From: a bacterium UBP10_UBA1149
GTDB lineage: Bacteria > Desulfobacterota > Binatia > UBA1149
Length of the DNA: 45,679 nucleotides
Reading direction: 5' to 3'
Assembly: GCA_002311335.1 (NCBI GenBank)
Contig: DBZX01000055.1
Span: 1 to 45,679, forward strand
Shown here: one piece after another, positions 14,623-31,910 of the stretch
How the letters are laid out: each line of letters starts with the position of its first letter
How positions within the stretch are numbered: position 1 is the stretch's first letter
Translations under genes and position numbers: made by a program
Notes under the pieces: generated by a model
The model's input: the letters and a program-made list of their open reading frames with translations, nothing else
Database searches by the model: none
What the model was told of the DNA's origin: nothing

Positions 14623-15762
14623 TCAGCACACTACGCCGTCGGCCTTGAGCGCTTCCTGCTCGTCTTCCGACAGGCCGAGGCCCGACAGTATGACGGCCGT
14701 GTGCTGGCCAATGGCGGGTGCCTCGCTGCCAGCCCGTCCCGGTGTTCGCAGCAGGCGCGGAGAGGGCGCGGGCACCGGCGGTCCCGAGACCCCGGCAACG
14801 AAACTCTCTCGTTCGACGCTGTGGGGGTGGGAGGCAACTTCGTCGATGGCTAGTATCGGCGCCACGCAGGCGTCGCTACCGTCAAATACCGCGCACCATT
14901 CGTCCCGGCTGCGACCGCCGAACACCGAGGCAAACTTTTCCTTCATCGCCGGCCAGGTCGACTGGTCCATCTGGGCAGGGAGGTCATCAGCGGCGAGGCC
15001 CATGCCTTCGATCAGCGCTGCATAAAACTGGGGTTCGATGGCACCCACCGACAGCCAGCGCTTGTCCGAGGTTTCGTAGGTGCCGTAGAAGTGTGCCGCG
15101 CCGTCGAGCAGGTTGGTGCCGCGTTCGGCTTTCCAGTAGCCCTGGGCCTGGAAGCCGAATATGAATGACGCGAGGCTGGCCGCTCCGTCTACCATGGCCG
15201 AGTCTATGACCTGGCCTTTGCCGGAACGTTCTCGCTCGAGCAGGGCCATCACTACACCCATGGCGCACAGCATACCGCCACCGGCAAAGTCGCCCAGGAG
15301 ATTGATGGGGGGCTCGGGCTTGTCGTTTTCACGGCCGAGCAGGTGCAGCACCCCCGACATGGCGACGTAGTTTATGTCGTGGCCGGCCATCGAAGCGTAG
15401 GGACCCTGCTGGCCGTAGCCGGTGAGCCTGGCGTAGACCAGCCGCGGGTTGCGCTCGTCGAGGACGTCGGGGCCCAGGCCTAGTTTTTCCATTACGCCGG
15501 GCCTGAACGGCTCTATGAGGGCGTCGGCATTTTCAGCGAGCTTGAGCAACAGCTCGATCCCCCGGGGATCCTTCAGGTTGATGGCAACCGACTGCTTGCC
15601 CCTGGCCAAGGCGTCCGCGGTGGCGTCGGGCAACATGCCGGGCACACCAGGACGGTCGACCCTGATCAGCTCAGCGCCGAAATCGGCCAGTATCATCCCG
15701 GCGTAAGGTACCGGCGCGAGTCCGGCCAGCTCGATTATTCTAAATCCTTTCAGTGGACCCAT
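14623..15762 (-). CDS. CaiB/BaiF family III CoA-transferase (alpha-methylacyl-CoA racemase-like)
   Basis: Start set at MGPLKGFRIIELAGLAPVPYAGMILADFGAELIRVDRP (AGGAG upstream). This N-terminal motif, together with GHDINY and GDFAGGG, is characteristic of CoA_transf_3 and racemase members. Confidence 0.85.
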   Translation of the reverse strand: MGPLKGFRIIELAGLAPVPYAGMILADFGAELIRVDRPGVPGMLPDATADALARGKQSVAINLKDPRGIELLLKLAENADALIEPFRPGVMEKLGLGPDVLDERNPRLVYARLTGYGQQGPYASMAGHDINYVAMSGVLHLLGRENDKPEPPINLLGDFAGGGMLCAMGVVMALLERERSGKGQVIDSAMVDGAASLASFIFGFQAQGYWKAERGTNLLDGAAHFYGTYETSDKRWLSVGAIEPQFYAALIEGMGLAADDLPAQMDQSTWPAMKEKFASVFGGRSRDEWCAVFDGSDACVAPILAIDEVASHPHSVERESFVAGVSGPPVPAPSPRLLRTPGRAGSEAPAIGQHTAVILSGLGLSEDEQEALKADGVVC

Positions 15763-15908
15763 TCCTGACTCCTGCATTCCATGAAACAGTGGGGGTTAAG
15801 AACTGCGCAAAACAATGAAACAGCAGCCCGGTTTAGTCGATATGTTACGCCGAGTCCATGTTTGCACCCCCGAACGGGGGGGGCTGGATGCCTAAACGAG
15901 GTTTTTCA

Positions 15909-19860: not shown

Positions 19861-21582
19861 TCAGTGAAGCACCGGCGGTTCGGCGGTTGCAGGGCACTGG
19901 TCGACGGCCGGCAGGGTCACGACCATGCGGGTGCCGCCATTGTCGGGCAGCTCTGCCCTTATGTTGCCGCCGTGGTGCTCAACCACTTCGCGGCATATCG
20001 CCAGCCCCAGGCCCGTGCCCCTGGGCTTGTTGCCGTCTGTAGTCGCTTGAACCTGGTGAAACCGCTCGAATACCTGGTCCAGCTGGCTCTCGGGTATGCC
20101 GGGCCCGCTGTCGGTGATGGTCAGCAGCAAGGTGCTCTCACCGTTTACTGTTTCTGCCGTCGCTCCCATGACTACTGAGCCGCCAGCCGGTGTGAACTTC
20201 ATGGAGTTGCTGCACAGGTTGGTGAGCACCTGTATGAGGCGGTCACGGTCGCCATCGATGGCGGGCAGGGGACCGGTGGCGTCTATTGTAAGCGAGATGT
20301 TGCGCTCTTCGTACAGTGGCCGGAAGGTGGCGTATACGTGCGACAGGATACCCAGCGGGTCGGCGATGCGGTGGCTGCGCCACTCTACGCGGCCCGATTC
20401 GATCTTGGCAAGGTCCAGGAGGTCGTTGATCAGGCGGGAAAGTCGGCTCGACTCCTCCATGATGACACCGCTGAAGCGCTCTGCGCTTTCGGGCTTCGTG
20501 TCGCCGTAGCGGTTGATGATTCGCGCGGCCGACAAGATGGCCGCGACCGGGCTGCGCAGCTCGTGTGATACGTTGCTGAGAAACTCTGTCTTCAGCCTGT
20601 CGTACTCGGTAAGTCTTTCGTTGGAGGCCTCGAGTTCCGCCGTGCGTTCGCGTACCCGTCTTTCCAAGAGGCGGGAGTGTTCTTCTACCTGGGCCCGCAG
20701 GCGTTTTTCTTCGCGGTACGCGGTGTCTGCTTGCTGCCGGGCAACGACGAGCTCGCTTATGTGTCCCTTGAGAGCGAGGCGCATATTCTCGAACTGTAGC
20801 GCCAGTTTACCGATCTCGTCTGGAGAGTCGGTCATGCGAATTTCCTGCTCGAGGTCGCCCCTCGATATCGCCGAGGCTTCCCGCGCGAGCTTGCTCACCG
20901 GCTTGAGCAGCCTGCGACTGAGAGCCGTCGAAGCAGTCAATCCCAGTCCGGCTATGGCTAAAGCAAACATGAATCCCAACGTCATCGTGCGGGCCAGTAG
21001 CACGCGACCGCGGTGCTTGGTCGCGAGCGCTTGCTGGTTTATGTCGGCCGGGTCGAAGGCCAGTCGCAGGGTACCCCAACGCTCTCCTCCTACGTTGATA
21101 GCGTGGGAGAGTACTACGAGATCAGAAGCCTGGTCTTGCGTGGTGGCAGGGTCGGCGATATTGGACCGGGCCGTGTTGTCGGCCAGGTCGGGGTCACTGC
21201 GCACCACCACGGTGCCGTCTTCGCGGGCCACCAGTGCCCAAGCCAACTGGTTGTCTTCGGTGGCCAGGCCACGGACGGTTTCGGCTACGAAATTGAAATT
21301 GAAACCAGCGATGGCATTTTCCATGCTCCGCGTGGTGCTGGCGGCAAGCAGCTGGCCGCGCTCTACCATGCCTTGTCGTAGTTGCAGGGTGGCACGTTCA
21401 ACCTGGTCGTTGAGTATGTGGGCCTGCTGCCAGGTGAGGACCGACGAAACCGCGGCCACGCTGCCCACGATAGTAAAGGCCGCGGCCAGGACCATTTTTC
21501 CATGAAGACCGAGTCGGGCCCACGGACGGGGTGACCGGTTTGCTGGGTCGAAGTCTTTCAATTTAAAACTCCCTGCTCGCAC
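19861..21582 (-). CDS. sensor histidine kinase (2 TM, periplasmic domain, HAMP, coiled coil, HisKA, HATPase_c); no receiver domain
   Basis: TM1 is VLAAAFTIVGSVAAVSSVL and TM2 is TLGFMFALAIAGLGLTA. HAMP region: LLKPVSKLAREASAISRGDLEQEI...DEIGKL. H-box: FLSNVSHELRSP. N/G boxes: NLCSNSMKFTP and GTGLGLAICREVV. The start is ambiguous. GTG 21582 overlaps the receptor gene by 20 nt. TTG 21561 follows GGGAG by 8 nt and sits 1 nt after the receptor stop. Confidence 0.85.
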   Translation of the reverse strand: MRAGSFKLKDFDPANRSPRPWARLGLHGKMVLAAAFTIVGSVAAVSSVLTWQQAHILNDQVERATLQLRQGMVERGQLLAASTTRSMENAIAGFNFNFVAETVRGLATEDNQLAWALVAREDGTVVVRSDPDLADNTARSNIADPATTQDQASDLVVLSHAINVGGERWGTLRLAFDPADINQQALATKHRGRVLLARTMTLGFMFALAIAGLGLTASTALSRRLLKPVSKLAREASAISRGDLEQEIRMTDSPDEIGKLALQFENMRLALKGHISELVVARQQADTAYREEKRLRAQVEEHSRLLERRVRERTAELEASNERLTEYDRLKTEFLSNVSHELRSPVAAILSAARIINRYGDTKPESAERFSGVIMEESSRLSRLINDLLDLAKIESGRVEWRSHRIADPLGILSHVYATFRPLYEERNISLTIDATGPLPAIDGDRDRLIQVLTNLCSNSMKFTPAGGSVVMGATAETVNGESTLLLTITDSGPGIPESQLDQVFERFHQVQATTDGNKPRGTGLGLAICREVVEHHGGNIRAELPDNGGTRMVVTLPAVDQCPATAEPPVLH

Positions 21583-23629
21583 GCAGGTAGAACGCCCGCG
21601 TTATTGGCGTGGCCGGCCTGACCGCGTCCTCGACGAATTCCAGGTGGCTGCGATCGGCGAGGTTGGTAGCGACAAGGCTGAGATCGGGCCAGTCGCCGCC
21701 GGGTTTGTAGTGAACGGCCAGGTCTACTCTCAGGTAGGGGTCCAACCGGACCGGGCTCCCGGGGCTGACCAGCGAGGCGTTGACCACCGAGTCACTCCAG
21801 CTGAAAGTGGGGACTATCCTCAACTTCCGGTTGACGTTGATGACGTGGCGCATATTCCATCGCATGCGTGGTACCGACAGGTTGGTGCGCGGAAGTAAGC
21901 CGAGAAGATCTCCGGTGCTGCGCAGGTGAAGATAGCCGACGTTGAATTCGCTGCGCCAGCGTTCATTGATCTGCACCGTGGCTACTCCCTCGCCGCCGTA
22001 AGCGAAACCGTTTTCATCGTTGTCCAGTAGGGTAACGGCGATAAGTTTCGTCGGGTCCAGGGGATCGGGAACCACGGGCAGAGTCTTCGAACCGGTCCAA
22101 CCGGCCAGGCCTTGGTAGTCGTTGTAGAAAGCGGCAATGTCGAGCGCCAGGCGATCGCCGAAGCGGTGACGGTAGCCCGTTTCCAGTGAAACCATACGGG
22201 TATCACCCGCATTCCCGTCGGTGCTCAGGATCGGGAAGATGTCGACCCCGGGAATGCCAGAGGGAACGGGAAACAGTGGAATCGTTGAGTACATCTCGCT
22301 GTAGGAAGGGGTGTTGATCGCCCGCGAGGCGGCGGCCCACAAGGTGCGGTCGTCGTCCAGGCGGTGAACGATGCGGGCGGACGGTTGAAAGTTGGTTCCG
22401 GTGAAACCGTTGTTTTCGATCTTGGTGCCCAGGGTCAGGCGTGTACGCGACCCCAGGTCTATCTCGTCCTGTACGAATCCGCCCACGAGGTTGAGCCTGC
22501 GGTCATTGACGGAGAAAACCACCAGCCCGTCGACGGTGTGAACGTCATGGGCCCTGACGTTGGCTCCCCAGGTTGCCCGGTGAGCGGGATGCGGTCTGAA
22601 ACTGTGTTGCACCTCCATCTCAAGGGTGTCTTTTTCGGTTTCGAAACAGCCCATGAAGGGGACCTTGCGGTCAACCGTGTCTCCGGCGAGTTGGAAGTAG
22701 GCAGCCGAACCATCTGCGAAATCCTTTTCCAGCCTGAACACCGACGACAGCATGGTGCTGGAGTAGCGGGGGTAACGACCGGCGGGCGAGCCGTCGTCGT
22801 TTCGGGCAATGTTGCCTACAAAACCGTCATGGAACTCGCCACTGCCGACTAGCTGCAGTCCGTGTCCGAGATCCCAGTCGAGCCGGTATCCAGCCCGTGT
22901 ATCCTGGTGTTCATCGGCGAGATCTCTGCCGTTGTTACCACCGTTGCCGTTGCCGGTTGACCAGCTGCCGAACACGCGGTAGGAAAGATTTCCGTATCGT
23001 CCCCCGTGCCGTGCTTCCGTCGTCGCGGCAGAGTTGGTACCGAACGACACCCTGGCTAGGTTGACCCGCGTGTCGTTGGAGTCGCGGGTAATTATGTTGA
23101 TGACGCCGTTGACCGCGTTGGCTCCGTACAGGCTGCCACCTGGGCCACGTATTACTTCTATGCGGTCAACATCGGGCAGGAAAGTGTTCCACTCGTGCCA
23201 CACTGTTCCCCCGAAAATAGGAGTGTAGAATGGGCGGCCATCGAGAAGCACGAGAAGCTTGTTGGCAAATACCCCGTTGAACCCCCTCGCTGAGATGGCT
23301 GCAAAATTGGCATCAACGTTGGCCACGTTGAGTCCGGGCACGAGGCGCAGGGCATCGGCCAGGCTGGTAGCGCCGGAATCGGCGATGTCCTCGGAACTGA
23401 CAACGTAGATCGCCGCCGCGGCTCCCCACAAGGACTCGGCGTGCCGTGAGACCGAGGTGACGATGTCGGACTCGACCTTGAAAAAATCCAGCTCCGAAAC
23501 TGCGTCGAAACCCACGCTGGCTTGCGGTGACTGGGCAGCGCTTGCCGGTGAGCTTACAATCGCGCAGAACGATAGAACGAGGAAAGCCAGGCGCCACAGC
23601 GCCAGCGGTGTGAATATACTGTTGAGCAT
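21563..23629 (-). CDS. TonB-dependent outer-membrane receptor
   Basis: Signal peptide MLNSIFTPLALWRLAFLVLSFCAIVSSPASA. Plug motifs: DIADSGATSLADALRLVPGLNV, RGFNG, LLVLLDGRPFY, IEVIRGPGGSLYGANAVNGVINIIT. A long beta-barrel follows, ending ...FYLRASREF (terminal Phe). Confidence 0.9.
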   Translation of the reverse strand: MLNSIFTPLALWRLAFLVLSFCAIVSSPASAAQSPQASVGFDAVSELDFFKVESDIVTSVSRHAESLWGAAAAIYVVSSEDIADSGATSLADALRLVPGLNVANVDANFAAISARGFNGVFANKLLVLLDGRPFYTPIFGGTVWHEWNTFLPDVDRIEVIRGPGGSLYGANAVNGVINIITRDSNDTRVNLARVSFGTNSAATTEARHGGRYGNLSYRVFGSWSTGNGNGGNNGRDLADEHQDTRAGYRLDWDLGHGLQLVGSGEFHDGFVGNIARNDDGSPAGRYPRYSSTMLSSVFRLEKDFADGSAAYFQLAGDTVDRKVPFMGCFETEKDTLEMEVQHSFRPHPAHRATWGANVRAHDVHTVDGLVVFSVNDRRLNLVGGFVQDEIDLGSRTRLTLGTKIENNGFTGTNFQPSARIVHRLDDDRTLWAAASRAINTPSYSEMYSTIPLFPVPSGIPGVDIFPILSTDGNAGDTRMVSLETGYRHRFGDRLALDIAAFYNDYQGLAGWTGSKTLPVVPDPLDPTKLIAVTLLDNDENGFAYGGEGVATVQINERWRSEFNVGYLHLRSTGDLLGLLPRTNLSVPRMRWNMRHVINVNRKLRIVPTFSWSDSVVNASLVSPGSPVRLDPYLRVDLAVHYKPGGDWPDLSLVATNLADRSHLEFVEDAVRPATPITRAFYLRASREF

Positions 23630-23631
23630 GA

Positions 23632-24600
23632 TCAGAAACCCTCCCTTGTGGGTGTGATGACGCGATCGGCCATGTGGATGGTTGTCGCGTTCAGATCGAG
23701 TCCGAGTGCCTTCGCTGTATCGGCGTTGACGACGAGCTTGGCCCCGAGGGGCGATTGTACGGGCGGCACGTTGCCCGGGTCTGTTATGAGCTGTTCCACG
23801 AGCAAGGCTGCCTGCGAACCCATGGTCGAGTAGCTTGGCGCTACCGAGAGCAGGGCACCCGCCTTCACGAAGTTCTCTGAAAAGGCGAGGAAAGCTACCC
23901 CGTCGTTGCGGCAGCGCGTGGACAGGTAGTCAAAGTTCTCTCGCGTGACTACGACCGGATCCGGGACCATCCAGAGCGCGTCTATCCTGCTGCGTATACG
24001 CCGGTAGGCTCCTGCCACCTCGTCGTGGTGGCGCACGGTCTCGTGCAGTATCTCCAAGCCGAGTTCGGAGGCGGCCGCGCGCGCTTCGTCCACGGTGCGG
24101 CTGTCGGAGTCGCTCGTGATGAGGCCTATACGGTGCAGTCCCGGGATGATGAGCTTGAACCTGACAAAGAGGTCGGCGGTGGGCAGCTCGACGCTTACCC
24201 CCGTGGTGGCGCCATCGGTGCTTATGTTGCGGCTCCATCCGAGCGCCATGGCAAACACGAGCGGGGTCTCGGGAAACGCCTCGCGCGCCGCTATGGCTGC
24301 GCGCGAGCCAAGGGCAAATACGGCCGACGGTCGCGTGGTGCTTGCGGCCTGCTTGAGAAATTCGGAGTCGCCTTGGTCTAACCTGCTGCGCAGGACGACC
24401 TCTATCGACTCGCGCTTGCTGGCCTGGCGGAAGGCCGTTGCGGGAGGCGTGTATTGTGGCAGATCATCGCTCTTCACTATTATCACCCCGGCCACGGCCG
24501 TACCGACGGTAAACGCCATCGATGCTGCCATGAGCAGGGCTGTCGTCGCAGCCAGCAGGGCGAGGCGTTGGCCTCGCTTATTCCAGTTGGAACGAATCAT
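23632..24600 (-). CDS. periplasmic substrate-binding protein, ABC_sub_bind family (PF04392-like)
   Basis: Signal or anchor segment LALLAATTALLMAASMAFTVGTAVA. Motifs TPLVFAM, TTGVSVELP, HRIGLITSDSDS, DALWMVPDP and ENFVKAGALLSVAPSYSTMGSQAALLVEQL..LVVNADTAKALGL fit the family. Its ATG overlaps the upstream stop (ATGA at 24597-24600), and its stop is 2 nt from the receptor start. Confidence 0.8.
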   Translation of the reverse strand: MIRSNWNKRGQRLALLAATTALLMAASMAFTVGTAVAGVIIVKSDDLPQYTPPATAFRQASKRESIEVVLRSRLDQGDSEFLKQAASTTRPSAVFALGSRAAIAAREAFPETPLVFAMALGWSRNISTDGATTGVSVELPTADLFVRFKLIIPGLHRIGLITSDSDSRTVDEARAAASELGLEILHETVRHHDEVAGAYRRIRSRIDALWMVPDPVVVTRENFDYLSTRCRNDGVAFLAFSENFVKAGALLSVAPSYSTMGSQAALLVEQLITDPGNVPPVQSPLGAKLVVNADTAKALGLDLNATTIHMADRVITPTREGF

Positions 24601-25466
24601 CGCTCCACCTCCTTTCGGTTCGTATTGTCCGCCATGACACGATCCTCTCCGTTTATGATTTCGAGTAGCTCGACTTCATCGAAGCCGAGAAGATTGATGA
24701 ATTGCCTGCCCCTGCTACTGGAGCTGAGCTTGGCGATACCGGCAGCCAGCCGGTTCGCCTCGTCGTCGTCGATGTAGCGCGTAGCGTACAGTCGTGGCAA
24801 GGGAATTTCCGGTGTTCGACCCAGCTCCACCAGGTTGTCGGTACCGCGCGGATTGACGCGCGCGAGAATTTCAAACTGGGCTGGCGTAACCAGCGCCGCG
24901 TCAACCTGGCCGAAGCTCAGGGCAAGCAGCGCGTCGATATCCTTGGGCACGGGCAGTACCCTTGCCCCGTCGCCCACCAGCGAGCGTATTCCCGAAGCGC
25001 TGGCGGGGTAGTCGATGGAACCCGGGTGCACTGCCGCGGCTACGGTTGCGTTGGCGAGTCCTGCGAGCGAGGACACCCCCTTGGTGGTCATAAGAACCTT
25101 GTGGTAGGTGTCGCGCCCATTACGGGTGGGGCGAAGCAGCGCGCGCAGTTGCAGGTTCTCCCCGTGCTCGGCGGCTACCCAGCCGGGCACGAGCACGAGC
25201 GCGGGCCGGGCGGTGGAAAGCTGGCCCACGAGGTCTTCGTAGCGGGCGAAGGCCTGGAAACTCAGGCCCAGTCCCGATTCAGAAAGCGCACGGTCAGCGG
25301 CCTCGGCCAGAGTGCTCAGGTTGCCGGGCGCCCAGTCGGGGCTGAAAAAGAACAGCTCAGCGTCGCTCGCACGCGCCACTACTGGCGTACAAAGCACTAA
25401 GCACAGAAAACAGGCTGTCGTTCGGCGCAGCAGGTCTATATCCCCCGGTCGCCCGCGAAGTAGCAA
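24597..25466 (-). CDS. periplasmic PhnD-like (phosphonate-binding fold, PF12974-like) substrate-binding protein
   Basis: The conserved part begins around LLRRTTACFLCLVLCTPVVARA (signal peptide), followed by ELFFFSPDWAPG..., ALVLVPGW and ...AALVTPAQFE. The nearest in-frame start upstream of the signal peptide is TTG 25466. The track's 436-aa version (to 25907) adds 147 implausible residues and overlaps the divergent kinase gene. The exact start is uncertain. Confidence 0.7.
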   Translation of the reverse strand: MLLRGRPGDIDLLRRTTACFLCLVLCTPVVARASDAELFFFSPDWAPGNLSTLAEAADRALSESGLGLSFQAFARYEDLVGQLSTARPALVLVPGWVAAEHGENLQLRALLRPTRNGRDTYHKVLMTTKGVSSLAGLANATVAAAVHPGSIDYPASASGIRSLVGDGARVLPVPKDIDALLALSFGQVDAALVTPAQFEILARVNPRGTDNLVELGRTPEIPLPRLYATRYIDDDEANRLAAGIAKLSSSSRGRQFINLLGFDEVELLEIINGEDRVMADNTNRKEVER

Positions 25467-25828
25467 GCAGTGGGCCAGCGGTCGGCTTCGCCGATAAAGC
25501 AGCTGTTTTCGGGCCTTACTGATGATGTCCGGTGACAGGTGGCAACAGCTTGCCGTTACAATTTTGCCGCTACAGCGAGTTTTACGTACACGCGTTTGCC
25601 CTCCGCGCGGGCTGCGCTTGAAGGCCCTGCTGACGGCCGTGCTGGGCGTCGTCATCGGACAAAAATGTGACGCAACAGTATTTTTTTGACGCCGCGGTCG
25701 CGGCTGCTGAGATTCGAGCCGCGTTGTGCCGCTGAAACAAAGGGTTGAGCAAAGGGCAGGGATTGGAACGGCTATTGCATTCTCGCGGAGGCAGTAAGGC
25801 GACAGGACTGTTGCCGGGCGAGGAACAA

Positions 25829-28039
25829 ATGAGACTGAAACAATTTCAAAAATTTGTAGTCGGCAGGATGGATGGCGAAGCAGTGGGTCCTGTCCTTGGC
25901 CGCTCACACACCGCGGTACTGCTGTCCGTACTGATATTCGGCCTGCTGGCTTCCTGCGTGCTTTACGTGATGGTAAGGGGCTGGGAGCTGCGCCGCGTGC
26001 AGGCTGACTTTTCCCACCGGGCGAGCAACTTCGCCATGGCCGTAGACGAACGGCTCGAAGTGGGGTCGGTTATCCTCAAGAGCTTTGTTGGCCTGTACGG
26101 TGCCGGCAAGGGAATGAACGATGAAGAGTTCCGGGCCATGGCTCGGCCGTTTACCTCGGGACAGCAGGGCCTGGGTGCCCTGGGCTGGGCGGTCCCCGGT
26201 CCGGGTGGAGACGCCCGGGGAGGCGATCTGTTCTCGGCGCGTGGCGAGCAGGTGGTATCCACGGAACCCGTAAGCCTGCGATTTGCGCTGCGACTTTCCG
26301 AGAGTGCCCAGGGCGTACCCGACCTGTCGGGCGTGGACCTGTCTTCGCTGCCCGGTGTACCAGCGGTGATGGCAGAGGCGGGCATGCGCGGCGAGACAAT
26401 GACTTCGGCCATCATGGACCTGGCCACCGACAGTGGGCAGGAGCCGGTGTTCTTCATGTTTGCACCCGTGTACCAGGCCGATGGAGCAGACCAGGGCCGA
26501 CCCGCGGCTTACGCGGTGGGTTTGTTCTCGGTAGCCGACATTGTCGAGTCGTCGCTTCTCAACATGGACGAAATAATGGCGGTGAGCATAAGCGAAGTGC
26601 TGCCGGGCGGTGGCCGTAGCTCGCTGCTCGAGCGGGGCTCGCCCGAGCTCGGCCGATCCCTGCAGATGTTTGCCGGTGTCCGGTGGTCGCGGATGCTCGA
26701 GCACGGTGGGCGCAGCTGGCAGTTGGCCGCTGTACCGACCGAGGGCTACCTGGCAACCCAGCGCACCCACCAGGCCGAGGGCCTGTTGGTCACCGGCACA
26801 CAGTTTACCGTGCTCCTGGTGGCGTACCTGTTTCTCGCCGTTGGACGCGCGGCCAGGATCGAGCTGGAAGTCAAAGAGAGGACCGCGGCCCTGGCCACGG
26901 CTAACCGCGATCTGAAAAAGGAAATACTCCAGCGGCGTACCGCCGAGCGCGCCCTGCGCCAGGGTGAGGAACGTATACGGGCCATAGTCACCCACGCTGC
27001 CGACGGAATAATTGCGCTCGATCGCGATGGCAGGATTGAATCGGTCAACGTGGCAGCGGAACAGATCTTTGCCATGTCCGCTTCGGAACTGCAGGGAGTG
27101 GCGATCAGCGAGCTGATGGAGCTGGCCGACGACGGTGACCTGGGCGAGCTTGTACAGAGTCTGCAGGGAACCCACGTCGAGGTCACCGCCCGGCGGGGCG
27201 ATGGCGAGCAGCTTACCGTGGGGCTGGCTGTCAGTCGCCTGCCCGAGGAAGAGGGCGGCGGGTGTTTCGTGGCCGTTGTAAGGGACATGTCGAGAGAGCG
27301 CGAGCTTGACCGCATGAAGTCTGATTTCGTGAGCAACGTGTCCCACGAGATGCGTACCCCGTTGTCGGCGATGATATTCGCCGCGCGTAGCCTGGCCCGT
27401 CGCAAGGGCGTGGACGGAAAGAACGATGACGCGAGCGTGGAGAAGTTCTCGGGCATCATCGTCGACGAGGGTGAACGCCTGAACAAGCTCATCAACGACG
27501 TACTCGACCTATCCACCATAGAGACGGGCCACGAGTTGTACCGTATCGTGGGCGTACAGCCGGCGGATATCGTCGAGCGGGTGAGCTCCGTTGCCACGAC
27601 GCTGGGGCGTCGCAAGGGTATTGATTTCTCGCTGAAGGTAGACGCCGACGTTGACCCGGTGCACGCGGATCCTGATCGAATCGTCCAGGTGTTGATGAAC
27701 CTGCTCGAGAACGCGATCAAGTTTACACCCTCGGGTGGTCGCGTGGGCTTGACGGTAGCCAGGCATAACTTCAACTACGTTCGCTTTGTTGTCGAGGACA
27801 ACGGGGTGGGCGTGTCAGTGGAAGACAAGGACCGGATATTCCAGCGCTTTGAACAGGGAGGCGACGTGATGACCACGCGGCCTTCGGGCACCGGGCTGGG
27901 ATTGTCGATTTGTCGCGAAGTCGTTGACAGCCATGGCGGCAGCATCTGGGTGGAGAGCGAGCCGAACGAAGGCGCGCGTTTCAGTTTTATCCTGCCAGTG
28001 GTCGACAAGCGCAGGGCCTCACTGCGCGAGTGCGCCTGA
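25829..28039 (+). CDS. sensor histidine kinase with extracytoplasmic CHASE-like domain, PAS, HisKA and HATPase_c; no receiver domain
   Basis: Start set at ATG 25829 (GAGGAA upstream). TM1 is AVLLSVLIFGLLASCVLYVMV. The extracytoplasmic region of about 290 aa (ADFSHRASNFAMAVDERLE...EEFRAMARPF...LGALGWAVPG) looks CHASE-like. TM2 is LLVTGTQFTVLLVAYLFLAVG. PAS region: ERIRAIVTHAADGIIALDRDGRIESVN. H-box: FVSNVSHEMRTP. G-box: GTGLGLSICREVV. Confidence 0.85.
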   Translation: MRLKQFQKFVVGRMDGEAVGPVLGRSHTAVLLSVLIFGLLASCVLYVMVRGWELRRVQADFSHRASNFAMAVDERLEVGSVILKSFVGLYGAGKGMNDEEFRAMARPFTSGQQGLGALGWAVPGPGGDARGGDLFSARGEQVVSTEPVSLRFALRLSESAQGVPDLSGVDLSSLPGVPAVMAEAGMRGETMTSAIMDLATDSGQEPVFFMFAPVYQADGADQGRPAAYAVGLFSVADIVESSLLNMDEIMAVSISEVLPGGGRSSLLERGSPELGRSLQMFAGVRWSRMLEHGGRSWQLAAVPTEGYLATQRTHQAEGLLVTGTQFTVLLVAYLFLAVGRAARIELEVKERTAALATANRDLKKEILQRRTAERALRQGEERIRAIVTHAADGIIALDRDGRIESVNVAAEQIFAMSASELQGVAISELMELADDGDLGELVQSLQGTHVEVTARRGDGEQLTVGLAVSRLPEEEGGGCFVAVVRDMSRERELDRMKSDFVSNVSHEMRTPLSAMIFAARSLARRKGVDGKNDDASVEKFSGIIVDEGERLNKLINDVLDLSTIETGHELYRIVGVQPADIVERVSSVATTLGRRKGIDFSLKVDADVDPVHADPDRIVQVLMNLLENAIKFTPSGGRVGLTVARHNFNYVRFVVEDNGVGVSVEDKDRIFQRFEQGGDVMTTRPSGTGLGLSICREVVDSHGGSIWVESEPNEGARFSFILPVVDKRRASLRECA

Positions 28040-28098: not shown

Positions 28099-29526
28099 GT
28101 GGTCGTAAACTCACTGCCTTTTTATCTCGCGGGTAGCCCCGAGGCCCCCAACGCCGACCTCGAGGTTTTTGACAAGTTCAGCGGCGAGCCGCTGGCCCGA
28201 GTGGCCCTGGCCGACCAGCATACTATCGACAGCGCTATAGAGTCCGCCTGTGCGGCTGCCGCCGGAATGGCAGCCATGCCAGCGTGGAGACGCGAGCAGG
28301 TACTGCTGCACTGCGTGGCGCGTTTTGAGCAACGCGCCGAAGAGCTGGCCCTGGGCCTCTGCGCCGAGGCCGGCAAACCCATACGCGACGCCAGGGGCGA
28401 GGTCGGCCGCTTGATCGACACTTTTCGTTACGCGGCCGGCGAGTCTCTGCGCATGGGTGGAGAGGTGATGCCGCTGGACATCAGCCCGCGTGCCACCGGC
28501 TACAGCGGTAGCTGGAAGCGCGTGCCGGTGGGCCCGTGCTCCTTCATCACGCCTTTCAACTTTCCGCTCAATCTCGTGGCGCACAAGGTGGCGCCGGCCA
28601 TCGCCGCTGGCTGTCCGTTTGTTCTCAAACCGGCCAGCCTTACGCCCCTGGGTGCGTTGACCATAGGCGAGATACTGGCGGAGACCGATCTGCCCGCAGG
28701 CGCCTTCTCGATATTGCCGTGCAGGCGCGACGCGGCCGAGCGGTTGATAACCGACGACCGGCTTGCCCTGCTCAGTTTTACTGGCTCTCCAGCAGTCGGC
28801 TGGGATTTGAAGGCCCGCGCGGGTCGCAAGAAAACGGTTCTCGAGCTCGGCGGCAACGCCGCGGTGGTGGTCGACGAAACCGCCGATCTCGCCGACGCCG
28901 CTGAGCGCATCGTGTTCGGTGCCTTCTACCAGTCGGGACAGAGCTGCATCGGCGTGCAGAGGATAATAGTGCAGGCCTCGGTCTACGACGAGCTGCTGGG
29001 GTTGCTGGTGGCGGCCACCGGTAAGCTCGTGGTGGGTGACCCGGCGCAGGAAGAGACCTTCGTGGGCCCCATGATATCCGAAGACGAAGCGGCGAGGCTT
29101 GAGTCGTGGATAGAGGGGGCGGTGGCCGCTGGTGGCCACTTGCTATGTGGCGGAGGGCGTGAAGGCGCGTTGCACGAGCCCAGCTTGCTCGAAGGCGTGC
29201 CCAAAGACTGCGAGTTGGTTTGCCGTGAAGCCTTCGGGCCGGTGGCGGTGCTGTCGAGGTTTGATCATTTCGACGAAGCCCTGGCCATGGTCAACGACAG
29301 CGACTTCGGCCTGCAGGCAGGAGTGTTCACGCGCGATGTCCATCGTGCCCAGCAAGCCTGGGACGAACTCGAGGTGGGGGGAGTCGTCATAGGTGACGTG
29401 CCGTCCTGGCGGGTTGACCACATGCCTTACGGCGGCGTCAAGCAGAGCGGCCTGGGCAGGGAAGGCGTACGCTACGCCATGGAAGACATGAGCGAGATCC
29501 GCATGATGGTGCTCCGCCGGCCCTGA
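28099..29526 (+). CDS. NAD(P)-dependent aldehyde dehydrogenase family protein
   Basis: 475 aa with a GTG start. FNFPLNLVAHKVAPAIAAGCPFVLKPAS, the catalytic region ELGGNAAVVV and QSGQSCIGVQR (catalytic Cys), and PYGGVKQSGLGREG are canonical ALDH motifs. Confidence 0.9.
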   Translation: MVVNSLPFYLAGSPEAPNADLEVFDKFSGEPLARVALADQHTIDSAIESACAAAAGMAAMPAWRREQVLLHCVARFEQRAEELALGLCAEAGKPIRDARGEVGRLIDTFRYAAGESLRMGGEVMPLDISPRATGYSGSWKRVPVGPCSFITPFNFPLNLVAHKVAPAIAAGCPFVLKPASLTPLGALTIGEILAETDLPAGAFSILPCRRDAAERLITDDRLALLSFTGSPAVGWDLKARAGRKKTVLELGGNAAVVVDETADLADAAERIVFGAFYQSGQSCIGVQRIIVQASVYDELLGLLVAATGKLVVGDPAQEETFVGPMISEDEAARLESWIEGAVAAGGHLLCGGGREGALHEPSLLEGVPKDCELVCREAFGPVAVLSRFDHFDEALAMVNDSDFGLQAGVFTRDVHRAQQAWDELEVGGVVIGDVPSWRVDHMPYGGVKQSGLGREGVRYAMEDMSEIRMMVLRRP

Positions 29527-29559
29527 CGGGTGGGCGCGGGCTGCGACGGGATTCGCTGG

Positions 29560-31014
29560 CTAGGAGGCGAACACAGGCGGGCGACGGTCGGCCCAGGGAT
29601 TGGCCTTCTCCAGTTGCCCGGCCACCGAGTACAGCAGGTCTTCGCGTCCGTGCGCCGCGGTAATCATTACACCCACCGGTAGCCCGTCGTTGGACCAGTG
29701 CAAGGGCAGCGAGATCGCCGGCTGTCCGGTGACGTTGGCCACGGGCGTGTAGGGGATCAGCTCCAGGATCTTCTGCGTGGAGCTTTCGACGTCGCCGTCT
29801 TTGGGGCTGAGGTCGCCGATTCTCGGAGGTGTTGAGCCCAGCGTGGGTGTGACCAACAGGTCAAAGCCGTCGTCCTGCCACCAGCCCAGCATTCGCCGGG
29901 TGTAGCGGCTCATCCACTTGAGCGTGTCTATGTAGTCGGCGGCCAGTATGGGGCGCCCGATGGAGGCCATCATGGCAGTGCCGGCTTCTACCTGCTCGTC
30001 GCCCACGCTGCGACCGGTAATCGTGGCCCACTCGTTCAAGCTGGCGGCCACCCAGCTGCCGATCACGCGCATGAAATGAAAGCGCAGTTCTTCGAGTTCA
30101 TCGAAGGCCGAGGGGTGAGACTCTTCTACTTCGTGGCCCAGCGATGACAACAGGCGCCCGGCGTTGAGCACCGCGGTTTCGCATTCCGGGTTGAGCGGTA
30201 TCGACTGGGCGGGGAAGCTGGTCATGAGCCCCAGCTTGAGACGCCCGGGCTCGGTGGTGGCGGCCTGCAACCAGGATCCAGAGGGGCCGGGGGCGGTGTA
30301 GGGGTCACCGGCCTCGTAGCTGGCCACGCAGTCGAGAACCGCGGCGCTGTCGCGTACCGAGCGCGTGACGACGTGCGAATTGACCAGGCCCGCCCAGTAC
30401 TCGCCGTAGTCTGGCCCCAGCGAACAGCGCCCACGCGTGGGCTTGAGGCCGACCAGCCCGCACTCACTCGCGGGGATGCGTATAGAGCCACCACCGTCGC
30501 TCGCGTGCGCCACCGGCACCATGCCCGATGCTACGGCCGCTCCCGAGCCGCCGCTGCTGCCTCCCGTGGAATGCGCAGTGTTCCAGGGATTGAGGCTGGG
30601 CCCGTAGGACTCGGGCTCGGTGGTGACGGTGAGACCCAGTTCGGGGGTGTTGGTCTTGCCCAGGGTGACGAAGCCGGCCGCGTTGAATTTTTTTACCAGC
30701 GTTGAGTCGTGGTCAGGACGGTAGTCGAGTTCCTTGAGCAGCTTCATGCCACAGTGAAACGGGTCGCCGGCCGAGGCAGCGTCGAGATCCTTGAGCAGGA
30801 AGGGGACTCCCTTGAACGGGCCGTCGCTGAGCTCATCGGATTGGGCCCTGCGCCGGGCCTGGTCGTAGAGCTTAGTGATGACGGCGTTGAGCTCGCCGTT
30901 GACCGATTCGATGCGTTCGATCGCGGCCTCCACGAGTTCGGCTGCGCTGGCCTCCCCGCTGGCCACGAGTTCGGCCTGGGCCAGTCCGTCCATCTTGTTC
31001 AGATCGTTGCTCAT
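29560..31014 (-). CDS. amidase-signature (AS) family amidase
   Basis: Start set at MSNDLNK (GGAGAG upstream). KDLDAASAG, the Gly/Ser-rich signature [33 protein letters not shown] and [12 protein letters not shown] are diagnostic. Confidence 0.9.
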
Positions 31015-31118
31015 CTGTTGTCTCTCCGTCACCGAGGCCGGTTTCAGTTGACCGGCAGGCAACAGGTATAGTGGCCCCCGGCGGCTGTTGAAAGCAGGCG
31101 CAGGGGAGAGAAAACGGG

Positions 31119-31910
31119 ATGCCCTACCAGTACCAGTCGTTACGCGTTGAAACAGTTGGCGGTGTGCTCCGGGTCACGATCGACAGGCCGGACAGCGATC
31201 TGAACGCCGTCGATGAAGTGCTGCACGCCGAACTGGCGCGCCTTTTTTCTGACTTGCGCCACGAGAACGAGGCCAGGGCGGTGCTGCTCACCGGTGGGGG
31301 AAGGGCCTTTTCGGCGGGCGGGGATTTCGAATGGTTTCCCAGCTTGCAGCAGCCCGGCAAGCTCGAGGAACTGAGGCGCGACGCGCGTTCGCTTATCTGG
31401 GACCTGCTCGACGTCGAGCTGCCCATAGTGGCGGCCGTCAACGGGCCGGCAATAGGCCTGGGCGCTACCATTGCGCTGTTGTGTGACACCATATTCATGG
31501 CCGAGAGCGCGACGGTGGCAGACCCTCACGTAAGGGTAGGGCTGGTCGCGGGCGACGGGGGTACGGTGGCTTGGCCACTGGCCGTCGGGCCGGCCCGCGC
31601 CAAGCAGTACCTGATGACGGGCGACCCGGTGTCGGCGCAGGAGGCCGAGAGGATAGGGCTGGTCAACTTCGTGGTGCCCGACGACGAACTCGATCATCGC
31701 GCCATGGAGTTCGCCACTCGATTGGCCGACCTGGCGCCCTTGCCACTGCGCTACACCAAGGCGGCCGTCAACAAGCTGGTCAAGGAAGCGCTCAACACCT
31801 CTTTCGATTTCGCCCTGGCGATGGAGATCTCTACTTTTCACAGCGAAGACCACGCCGAGGCCCTCGCGGCCATCAAGGAGAAAAGATCCCCATCGTTCAA
31901 GGGACGCTAG
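31119..31910 (+). CDS. enoyl-CoA hydratase/isomerase (crotonase) family protein
   Basis: 263 aa. LTGGGRAFSAGGDF, PIVAAVNGPAIGLGATIALLCD and GGTVAWPLAVGPARAKQYLMTG are crotonase-fold motifs. Confidence 0.9.
   Translation: MPYQYQSLRVETVGGVLRVTIDRPDSDLNAVDEVLHAELARLFSDLRHENEARAVLLTGGGRAFSAGGDFEWFPSLQQPGKLEELRRDARSLIWDLLDVELPIVAAVNGPAIGLGATIALLCDTIFMAESATVADPHVRVGLVAGDGGTVAWPLAVGPARAKQYLMTGDPVSAQEAERIGLVNFVVPDDELDHRAMEFATRLADLAPLPLRYTKAAVNKLVKEALNTSFDFALAMEISTFHSEDHAEALAAIKEKRSPSFKGR

Follow-up and report, generated by a model that had tools for sequence, protein, structure and literature searches.

Only a few histidine kinases, such as LuxPQ, TorTS and AioXS, are known to depend on a binding protein, and TonB-dependent receptors (TBDRs) are known to signal via anti-sigma factors. 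The locus described here unites these two ideas. It consists of four consecutive genes on the minus strand, at positions 19861-25466 of the window (the whole stretch of DNA that was analysed, 45,679 nt), in a Binatia genome assembly of 2.6 Mb distributed over 101 contigs and estimated to be 86.5% complete. The four genes encode two periplasmic binding proteins, called SBP1 and SBP2 below, a TBDR and a sensor histidine kinase. On the basis of sequence comparisons, we consider it fairly probable that this set constitutes a trans-envelope sensor working without an ABC transporter, in which a ligand would be handed over from the receptor to the binding proteins and from these to the kinase. The arrangement is conserved in Binatia and reappears with other outputs in Myxococcota-like lineages. 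No publication describing the SBP1-SBP2-receptor-kinase module was found in our literature searches, and we rate it as a variant of the known binding-protein-dependent two-component sensing in which the combination of parts is new.

AioX is a PF12974 binding protein whose role is limited to signalling toward AioS, a kinase with a sCache-like sensor, and ArrX shares with it the property of existing solely to signal to a kinase (PMC8050422, PMC5908839). As in AioX-AioS-AioR and its ArrX/ArxX counterparts, which sense arsenic oxyanions, the module has a gene for a PF12974-type protein near that of a kinase with two transmembrane helices and a sCache-like sensor, the genomic evidence gives this binding protein no cognate ABC transporter, and in one of the distant loci described below (L095) the PF12974 gene lies directly upstream of the kinase gene. 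The module differs by the addition of a PF04392 binding protein and of a TBDR, and by the absence of an adjacent response regulator. BstB, the sterol-binding periplasmic protein of Methylococcus capsulatus, has a PhnD fold and serves no ABC importer; its partners in lipid trafficking are the resistance-nodulation-division (RND) transporter BstA and BstC (PMC10942540). BstB is the nearest solved match of the SBP1 family and, like SBP1, a non-ABC protein of the PhnD fold, whereas genes for BstA and BstC are missing from the locus. The PF04392 importer proteins of solved structure bind aromatic amino acids (PMC10443332). Those of S. pneumoniae (TrpX-type, 3LFT), C. difficile (CD0873) and V. cholerae (3LKV) share with SBP2 both the family and the two-lobe fold, but SBP2 has no permease or ATPase, belongs to a Gram-negative periplasm and is coupled to a receptor and a kinase.

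On the receptor side, the module departs from the cell-surface signalling of FecA-FecR-FecI, since its receptor has no STN domain and no pair of anti-sigma factor and extracytoplasmic function (ECF) sigma factor accompanies it; the relay would pass instead via the binding proteins to a two-component kinase. A second group of TBDRs is encoded with a YfiR-like (DUF4154) protein and a CHASE8 sensor in a trio catalogued in NCBIfam as NF053590, NF053591 and NF053592, on which no paper was found in the literature searches. In module and trio alike, the receptor gene is accompanied by genes for a periplasmic protein and for a HAMP sensor kinase; the receptors belong to sister clades and the sensors show a remote resemblance. 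The module nevertheless contains no DUF4154 protein, carries two full-length two-lobe binding proteins upstream of the receptor, has a sCache_3_2-like sensor and not a CHASE8 one, and its proteins miss all three NCBIfam cut-offs. Finally, in YfiBNR (TpbB/DgcN; Pseudomonas aeruginosa, E. coli) and in HmsCDE (Yersinia), the inner-membrane sensor is under the control of a periplasmic protein that a partner in the outer membrane is able to engage; YfiR holds YfiN in one state. The module shares this general layout without any YfiR-family protein, with a TonB barrel in place of the OmpA-like lipoprotein and with a histidine kinase in place of the diguanylate cyclase.

Organisation and conservation of the four-gene module

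Four consecutive open reading frames occupy the minus strand in 19861-25907. The initial annotation had described four tightly packed genes here, and the reading frames and their Pfam families bear this out:

SBP1: 24597..25466, minus strand, PF12974-type (PhnD/AioX/BstB-like) binding protein, 289 aa from TTG 25466
SBP2: 23632..24600, minus strand, PF04392 (ABC_sub_bind) periplasmic binding protein, 322 aa
TonB-dependent receptor: 21563..23629, minus strand, 688 aa, Plug and TonB_dep_Rec barrel
Sensor histidine kinase: 19861..21582, minus strand, first transmembrane helix (TM1), periplasmic domain of about 150 aa, second helix (TM2), HAMP, HisKA, HATPase_c

The junctions are those announced by the same annotation. 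The TGA of SBP1 and the ATG of SBP2 overlap within ATGA (24597-24600), which couples the two genes translationally; AAGGAGG precedes the SBP2 start, and the receptor ATG at 23629 stands 2 nt past the SBP2 stop. The kinase gene has two start candidates, GTG 21582, which produces a 20-nt overlap with the receptor gene, and TTG 21561, located 1 nt past the receptor TAA and preceded by GGGAG 7 nt upstream; the TTG is the likelier of the two. The SBP1 frame is open up to 25907, and a start at TTG 25466 yields a protein whose length resembles that of its relatives and whose signal-peptide-like N-terminus ends in ARA/SD. Signal peptides are also found on the two other exported proteins. As stated initially, the operon encodes neither an ABC permease nor an ATPase.

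Of 31 genomes searched within the order, 16 possess a strong SBP2 ortholog (E below 1e-70). Gene order could be judged in the 13 of these with long enough contigs, which represent five GTDB families, and the succession SBP1-SBP2-receptor-kinase is kept in all 13 with short gaps or overlaps, the proteins of the Binatia modules being 34-60% identical outside the genus. The four-gene set is thus conserved far beyond chance. Its surroundings vary from one family to another. In families f2-f5, an acyl-CoA dehydrogenase gene lies upstream and hflK and hflC (343 and 285 aa) follow the kinase gene in the same direction (L018:8428-10313, L023:14001-15886, L022:2052-3943). In the window, the kinase gene is followed not by hflK-hflC but by a convergent giant gene with DUF4215, and in its own family, as well as in genome G016, a divergent CHASE-PAS kinase gene stands upstream of the module. 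Because the flanks change in this way, the four genes themselves, and not the neighbourhood, appear as the conserved unit. Membership of hflK and hflC in the system was considered and rejected as a matter of synteny only, these genes being missing from that position in the genus of the window.

Co-inheritance of the binding proteins with a sCache_3_2 sensor

The association of the two binding proteins with a particular type of sensor can be followed well outside the order. Seven distant loci (L095-L101), from Myxococcota or 'Deltaproteobacteria' metagenome-assembled genomes (MAGs) and with 25-34% identity, were examined. In six of the seven, the PF12974 and PF04392 genes are adjacent and overlap each other, and in six a membrane sensor combining sCache_3_2 and HAMP is encoded at most two genes away. 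A hidden Markov model (HMM) of the periplasmic region of the Binatia kinases, from which HAMP was excluded, matches these distant sensors end to end with E-values of 1e-18 to 1e-29. The Pfam threshold for sCache_3_2 (PF17203) is passed by a Binatia ortholog (L019) and by a distant sensor (L098), the sensor domain of the window kinase being itself too divergent to reach it.

The outputs connected to this input domain are diverse: a plain histidine kinase, hybrids of kinase and REC domain followed by a stand-alone REC protein, and even a phosphatase. In the last case (L101:4166-7992), the PF12974 and PF04392 pair is divergent from a sCache_3_2-HAMP-SpoIIE sensor, that is, a SiaA-like PP2C phosphatase. 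A TBDR gene is present in six of the seven loci, and in L095 the genes are distributed over two convergent units, SBP2 with the receptor and SBP1 with the kinase. No ABC permease or ATPase gene was found in any of the seven loci, all of them fully annotated. That the binding-protein pair is inherited together with the sCache_3_2 domain, whatever the output attached to it, is the strongest argument that these proteins act on that domain.

Search for ABC partners

Both PF12974 and PF04392 are best known from ABC importers. Partners were sought in and around the module and in whole genomes. In the Binatia loci, the module is not interrupted by any ABC permease or ATPase gene, and in none of the 20 or more loci examined was an ABC component encountered near the binding-protein pair. 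The genome of the window has only two BPD_transp_2 genes, both in a urea transporter locus of the UrtA-E type (C53:19800-25700) that comes with its own UrtA and ATPase, and its two PhnE-like permeases belong to a PhnD-PhnC-PhnE-PhnE locus (C73:13600-17160) equipped with its own PhnD and PhnC. These two loci were used as controls for the orphan status of SBP1 and SBP2. Five other module-bearing genomes, 94-97% complete, were searched in the same manner (G002, G004, G005, G011 and G015). Three of them (G004, G011 and G005, 95-97% complete) gave no BPD_transp_2 match; G002 has a pair similar in scores and frame lengths to the Urt pair of the window genome, and G015 has similar matches at a single locus. 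Four of the five (G004, G011, G015 and G005) likewise gave no match for a PhnE-like permease. The possibility raised by the initial annotation against its own proposal, namely partners encoded elsewhere, thus meets permeases that already have their own binding proteins, and several module genomes from which the matching families are missing; the sensing proposal is not refuted by this check.

The two binding proteins

SBP1 belongs to PF12974 (Phosphonate-bd), of which it is a divergent representative (E 1e-10 with the 289-aa form), and is the sole copy of its subfamily in the genome. When its family profile is compared to the PDB, the best match is BstB (7T1M, MCA1014), near full length and with an E-value of 6e-11, followed by ArrX and AioX, while the PhnD proteins devoted to transport come only after these. 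This order of resemblance lends support to a sensing function, even if the similarity to ArrX and AioX is mostly limited to the C-terminal lobe (E about 1e-7 to 1e-9) and the similarity to BstB is remote, SBP1 scoring 15.7 bits against NF045601 for a cut-off of 350. An invariant cysteine is absent from the SBP1 alignment, so that arsenite binding of the AioX type is unlikely. Sequence searches retrieve only about 70 relatives, and those with an NCBI organism label belong to Binatia, 'Deltaproteobacteria' or Myxococcota MAGs. Many are named merely as hypothetical or generic binding proteins.

SBP2 is the one PF04392 protein encoded in the whole assembly (ABC_sub_bind, E 1.7e-18). HMM searches did not reassign either binding protein, so the families given initially are kept. 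The AlphaFold2 model of SBP2, with a mean predicted local distance difference test (pLDDT) of 84.7, is an intact two-lobe binding protein of type I. Its best structural matches are PF04392 proteins, 3LFT (bound to tryptophan), 6HNJ/6HNI and 3LKV, with CD0873 among them, at an identity of only 18-20% to the solved importer proteins of the family. A single-lobe Rhodothermus protein matches one lobe of the model. Assignment of SBP2 to the YfiR family was tried and rejected: no match to DUF4154 or NF053591 appears even at E<=10, the profile comparison with hhalign gives a probability of 19%, and YfiR is missing from the top 50 fold matches. In two of the 13 related genomes, the SBP2 gene is duplicated in tandem. 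A protein of 994 aa in which the PF04392 domain is repeated three times in tandem (total score 507.9 bits) was also observed in another genome (L026:7980-10964, G022:C53); with the probes used, no transporter or sensor gene was recognised near it.

The sensor kinase and the receptor

The kinase carries HAMP, HisKA and HATPase_c domains, an intact H-box (SHELRSP) and no receiver domain. Two transmembrane helices flank its periplasmic stretch of about 150 aa, in accordance with the initial description of a HAMP kinase with a loop of this size. The model of the N-terminal part (pLDDT 80.8) has a PDC/sCache fold, in which a transmembrane helix is prolonged by a long periplasmic one; a short helix, a four-stranded sheet, TM2 and HAMP come next. 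Foldseek places it nearest to the extracellular domains of WalK and PhoR, a LapD-type domain, CitA and DctB; Tlp3 is also matched. The CHASE8 sensors of the trio are remotely similar to it (hhalign probability 92%, E 6e-7 with HAMP excluded, with weak reciprocal HMM matches), and the kinase scores 20.1 bits (E 3.8e-4) against NF053592 for a cut-off of 194. The designation of this sensor as CHASE8 was rejected in favour of sCache_3_2-like, since Pfam attributes CHASE8 to the trio sensors and sCache_3_2 to L019 and L098. As to the response regulator, the initial annotation saw none in the window, and no REC domain is indeed encoded on the contig; the assembly contains nine REC matches, all on other contigs, of which five are not adjacent to a kinase gene, two of these being on C95 and one each on C3, C35 and C31.

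The receptor consists of Plug and TonB_dep_Rec domains only, with a barrel of the 22-strand type. Pfam detects no STN domain at its N-terminus, and sigma or anti-sigma genes are absent from the operon. A TonB-box-like segment, DIVTSVS, is present, TonB being encoded in the genome. In the alignment of the Binatia receptors, this segment is part of a conserved N-terminal motif, E(L/I)(E/D)FF(K/R)VE..(I/V)VTSVS. The portion that directly precedes VTSVS is E(L/I)(E/D)FF(K/R)VE in Binatia, whereas the receptors of the trio have (D/E)LSLE(E/Q)LM there; this portion may serve as a family-specific peptide for periplasmic contacts.

The best NCBIfam model for the receptor is NF053590, the TOL_0244 family, with 427.7 bits for a cut-off of 645, the next family reaching 110 bits. 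Twenty loci of the NF053590 family were examined across the phylum, and about 11 have the succession receptor, protein of about 190 aa and HAMP sensor, or a near variant of it. The protein of about 190 aa is a YfiR/HmsC-like DUF4154 protein in the three cases scanned, and the sensors carry CHASE8 in three out of three. The genome of the window has no match to DUF4154 (PF13689) anywhere. In the receptor tree, the 11 receptors from Binatia modules group together with a support of 100/100, and their clade is sister to the 14 trio receptors (joint support 97/99), not nested within them. The receptors found beside the binding-protein pair in the distant lineages are placed elsewhere in the tree, on long branches. 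In our reading of these comparisons, the Binatia operon would be a sensor core made of the binding-protein pair and the sCache_3_2 domain, joined to a receptor of the trio lineage. A replacement of the trio by the module in the order was envisaged and rejected: both co-exist in seven genomes, and they are parallel systems.

PF04392 proteins are nevertheless encountered in the YfiR position in class-level relatives, with the succession receptor, PF04392 protein and hybrid kinase in L030 and PF04392 protein and hybrid kinase in L029. In another locus (L025:1407-4874, G039:C359), Plug, barrel, DUF4398 and PF04392 are read in one frame of 1155 aa followed by a HAMP kinase gene, an apparent fusion of receptor and binding protein observed in a single case on a 5-kb MAG contig, which may stem from a sequencing frameshift.

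Proposed mechanism and alternative explanations

The sensing pathway proposed initially, from outer-membrane uptake to periplasmic capture and kinase activation, is supported by the comparative evidence, that is, the co-inheritance with sCache_3_2, the missing permeases and the likeness to ArrX, AioX and BstB. In such a pathway, the TonB-powered receptor would admit a scarce or bulky ligand to the periplasm, where SBP1, SBP2 or both would capture it. Loaded or unloaded, the binding proteins would then dock on the sCache_3_2-like domain and switch the autokinase in one direction or the other, and the kinase would phosphorylate a response regulator whose gene lies elsewhere. The clues to the ligand are weak, suggesting a hydrophobic or aromatic compound, and they diverge: PF04392 proteins suggest aromatic amino acids, BstB suggests sterols, and TOL_0244, a receptor of the NF053590 family, is induced sevenfold on the n-C28 alkane (PMC6304351). 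The similarity to BstB and the alkane-induced relative could be combined, as a side reading, into a hydrophobic, lipid-like molecule.

Several observations weigh against this hand-over of a ligand to the kinase. The existence of two binding proteins is left unexplained by it, and no response regulator gene adjoins the module in any of the 13 related Binatia genomes. In the distant loci, L101 has no TonB receptor, L097 has no sensor within 7 kb, and the receptors are not orthologous to the Binatia receptor; the link with the receptor is therefore looser than that between the binding proteins and the sensor.

If the pathway is correct, it attributes a function to those orphan proteins of the PF04392 and PF12974 families which annotation pipelines label, as they do SBP1 and SBP2, as ABC transporter components. 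The carriers being mostly uncultured, its immediate value lies in a better annotation and in a hypothesis for the culturable myxobacterial homologues. A bolder version, which we put forward tentatively and hold to be a good deal less probable than the simple sensor, is a new route by which a signal at the outer membrane would reach a two-component system. The receptor, lacking STN, would hand either a ligand or a conformational state to the transporter-less pair of binding proteins, which would act jointly on sCache_3_2, and the L025 fusion would reflect a real complex between receptor and binding protein. If true, this would represent a third kind of TonB-linked signalling, beside the anti-sigma/ECF systems and the hybrid kinases linked to SusC.

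A different logic, borrowed from YfiBNR, would dispense with any ligand at the kinase. SBP2, alone or with SBP1, would hold the sensor of the kinase, and the receptor would capture the binding protein upon ligand arrival or envelope stress, thereby freeing the kinase. This sequestration accords with the sister relationship between the module receptors and those of the trio, with the remote similarity of the sensor to CHASE8, with a weak alignment of the C-terminal segment of SBP2 to YfiR-like proteins, with the PF04392 protein standing in the YfiR position of L030 and with the physical association suggested by the 1155-aa frame of L025. Yet SBP2 keeps a complete two-lobe ligand-binding fold far from YfiR in the structural comparisons, its profile match to YfiR is weak, the fusion was seen only once, and trio and module occur side by side in the order as parallel systems. 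SBP1, moreover, has no counterpart in YfiBNR. We regard sequestration as unlikely.

The ligand hand-over can also be set against a role of the receptor and the binding proteins in uptake or periplasmic delivery. They would supply a periplasmic enzyme or a non-ABC carrier of the inner membrane with a nutrient or cofactor, while the kinase would regulate expression only and sense another signal through its own sCache domain. Domains of this type commonly bind small ligands directly, and the sensor fold indeed matches CitA, DctB and Tlp3. BstB, the nearest solved relative of SBP1, is itself devoted to lipid trafficking with an RND transporter and not to sensing (PMC10942540), and genes of fatty-acid and CoA metabolism lie nearby in the window, with an acyl-CoA dehydrogenase gene conserved upstream of the module in other families. 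These flanking genes differ, however, between families f2-f5, with their hflKC and acyl-CoA dehydrogenase genes, and the genus of the window, which has other genes. No carrier or enzyme gene is conserved with the binding-protein pair across lineages, whereas the sCache_3_2-HAMP sensor is, even with a PP2C output, and this explanation is given still less credit than sequestration. The last one, in which SBP1 and SBP2 are ordinary importer proteins with permease and ATPase elsewhere in the genome, draws on the reputation of both Pfam families and on the PhnE-like and BPD_transp_2 pairs of an incomplete assembly, but these permeases are part of complete loci that include a UrtA and a PhnD, and three module genomes of 95-97% completeness without BPD_transp_2 and four without a PhnE-like gene leave it largely refuted and barely credible.

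Upstream region and neighbouring genes

Two further features adjoin the operon on its upstream side:

Upstream intergenic region: 25467..25828, no strand, common to the operon and to the divergent kinase gene
CHASE-PAS-HisKA-HATPase kinase: 25829..28039, plus strand, divergent from the operon, domains assigned by Pfam, no receiver

The intergenic region is the only sizeable non-coding gap adjoining the operon, and the operon promoter is presumably located within it. A pattern scan found no sigma-70-like site on its minus strand, and a scan of the operon strand for promoters and terminators gave nothing above the shuffled background. On either side of the sensor region, at 28099-31910 and 14623-15777 of the window, lie genes for an aldehyde dehydrogenase, an amidase, an enoyl-CoA hydratase and a family III CoA-transferase; to connect these genes with the regulon of the sensor would be pure speculation. 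A divergent kinase gene is likewise found at this place in two congeneric genomes, in G004, which belongs to the same family, and in G016, and the CHASE-PAS kinase of the window may be a partner of the module in one network.

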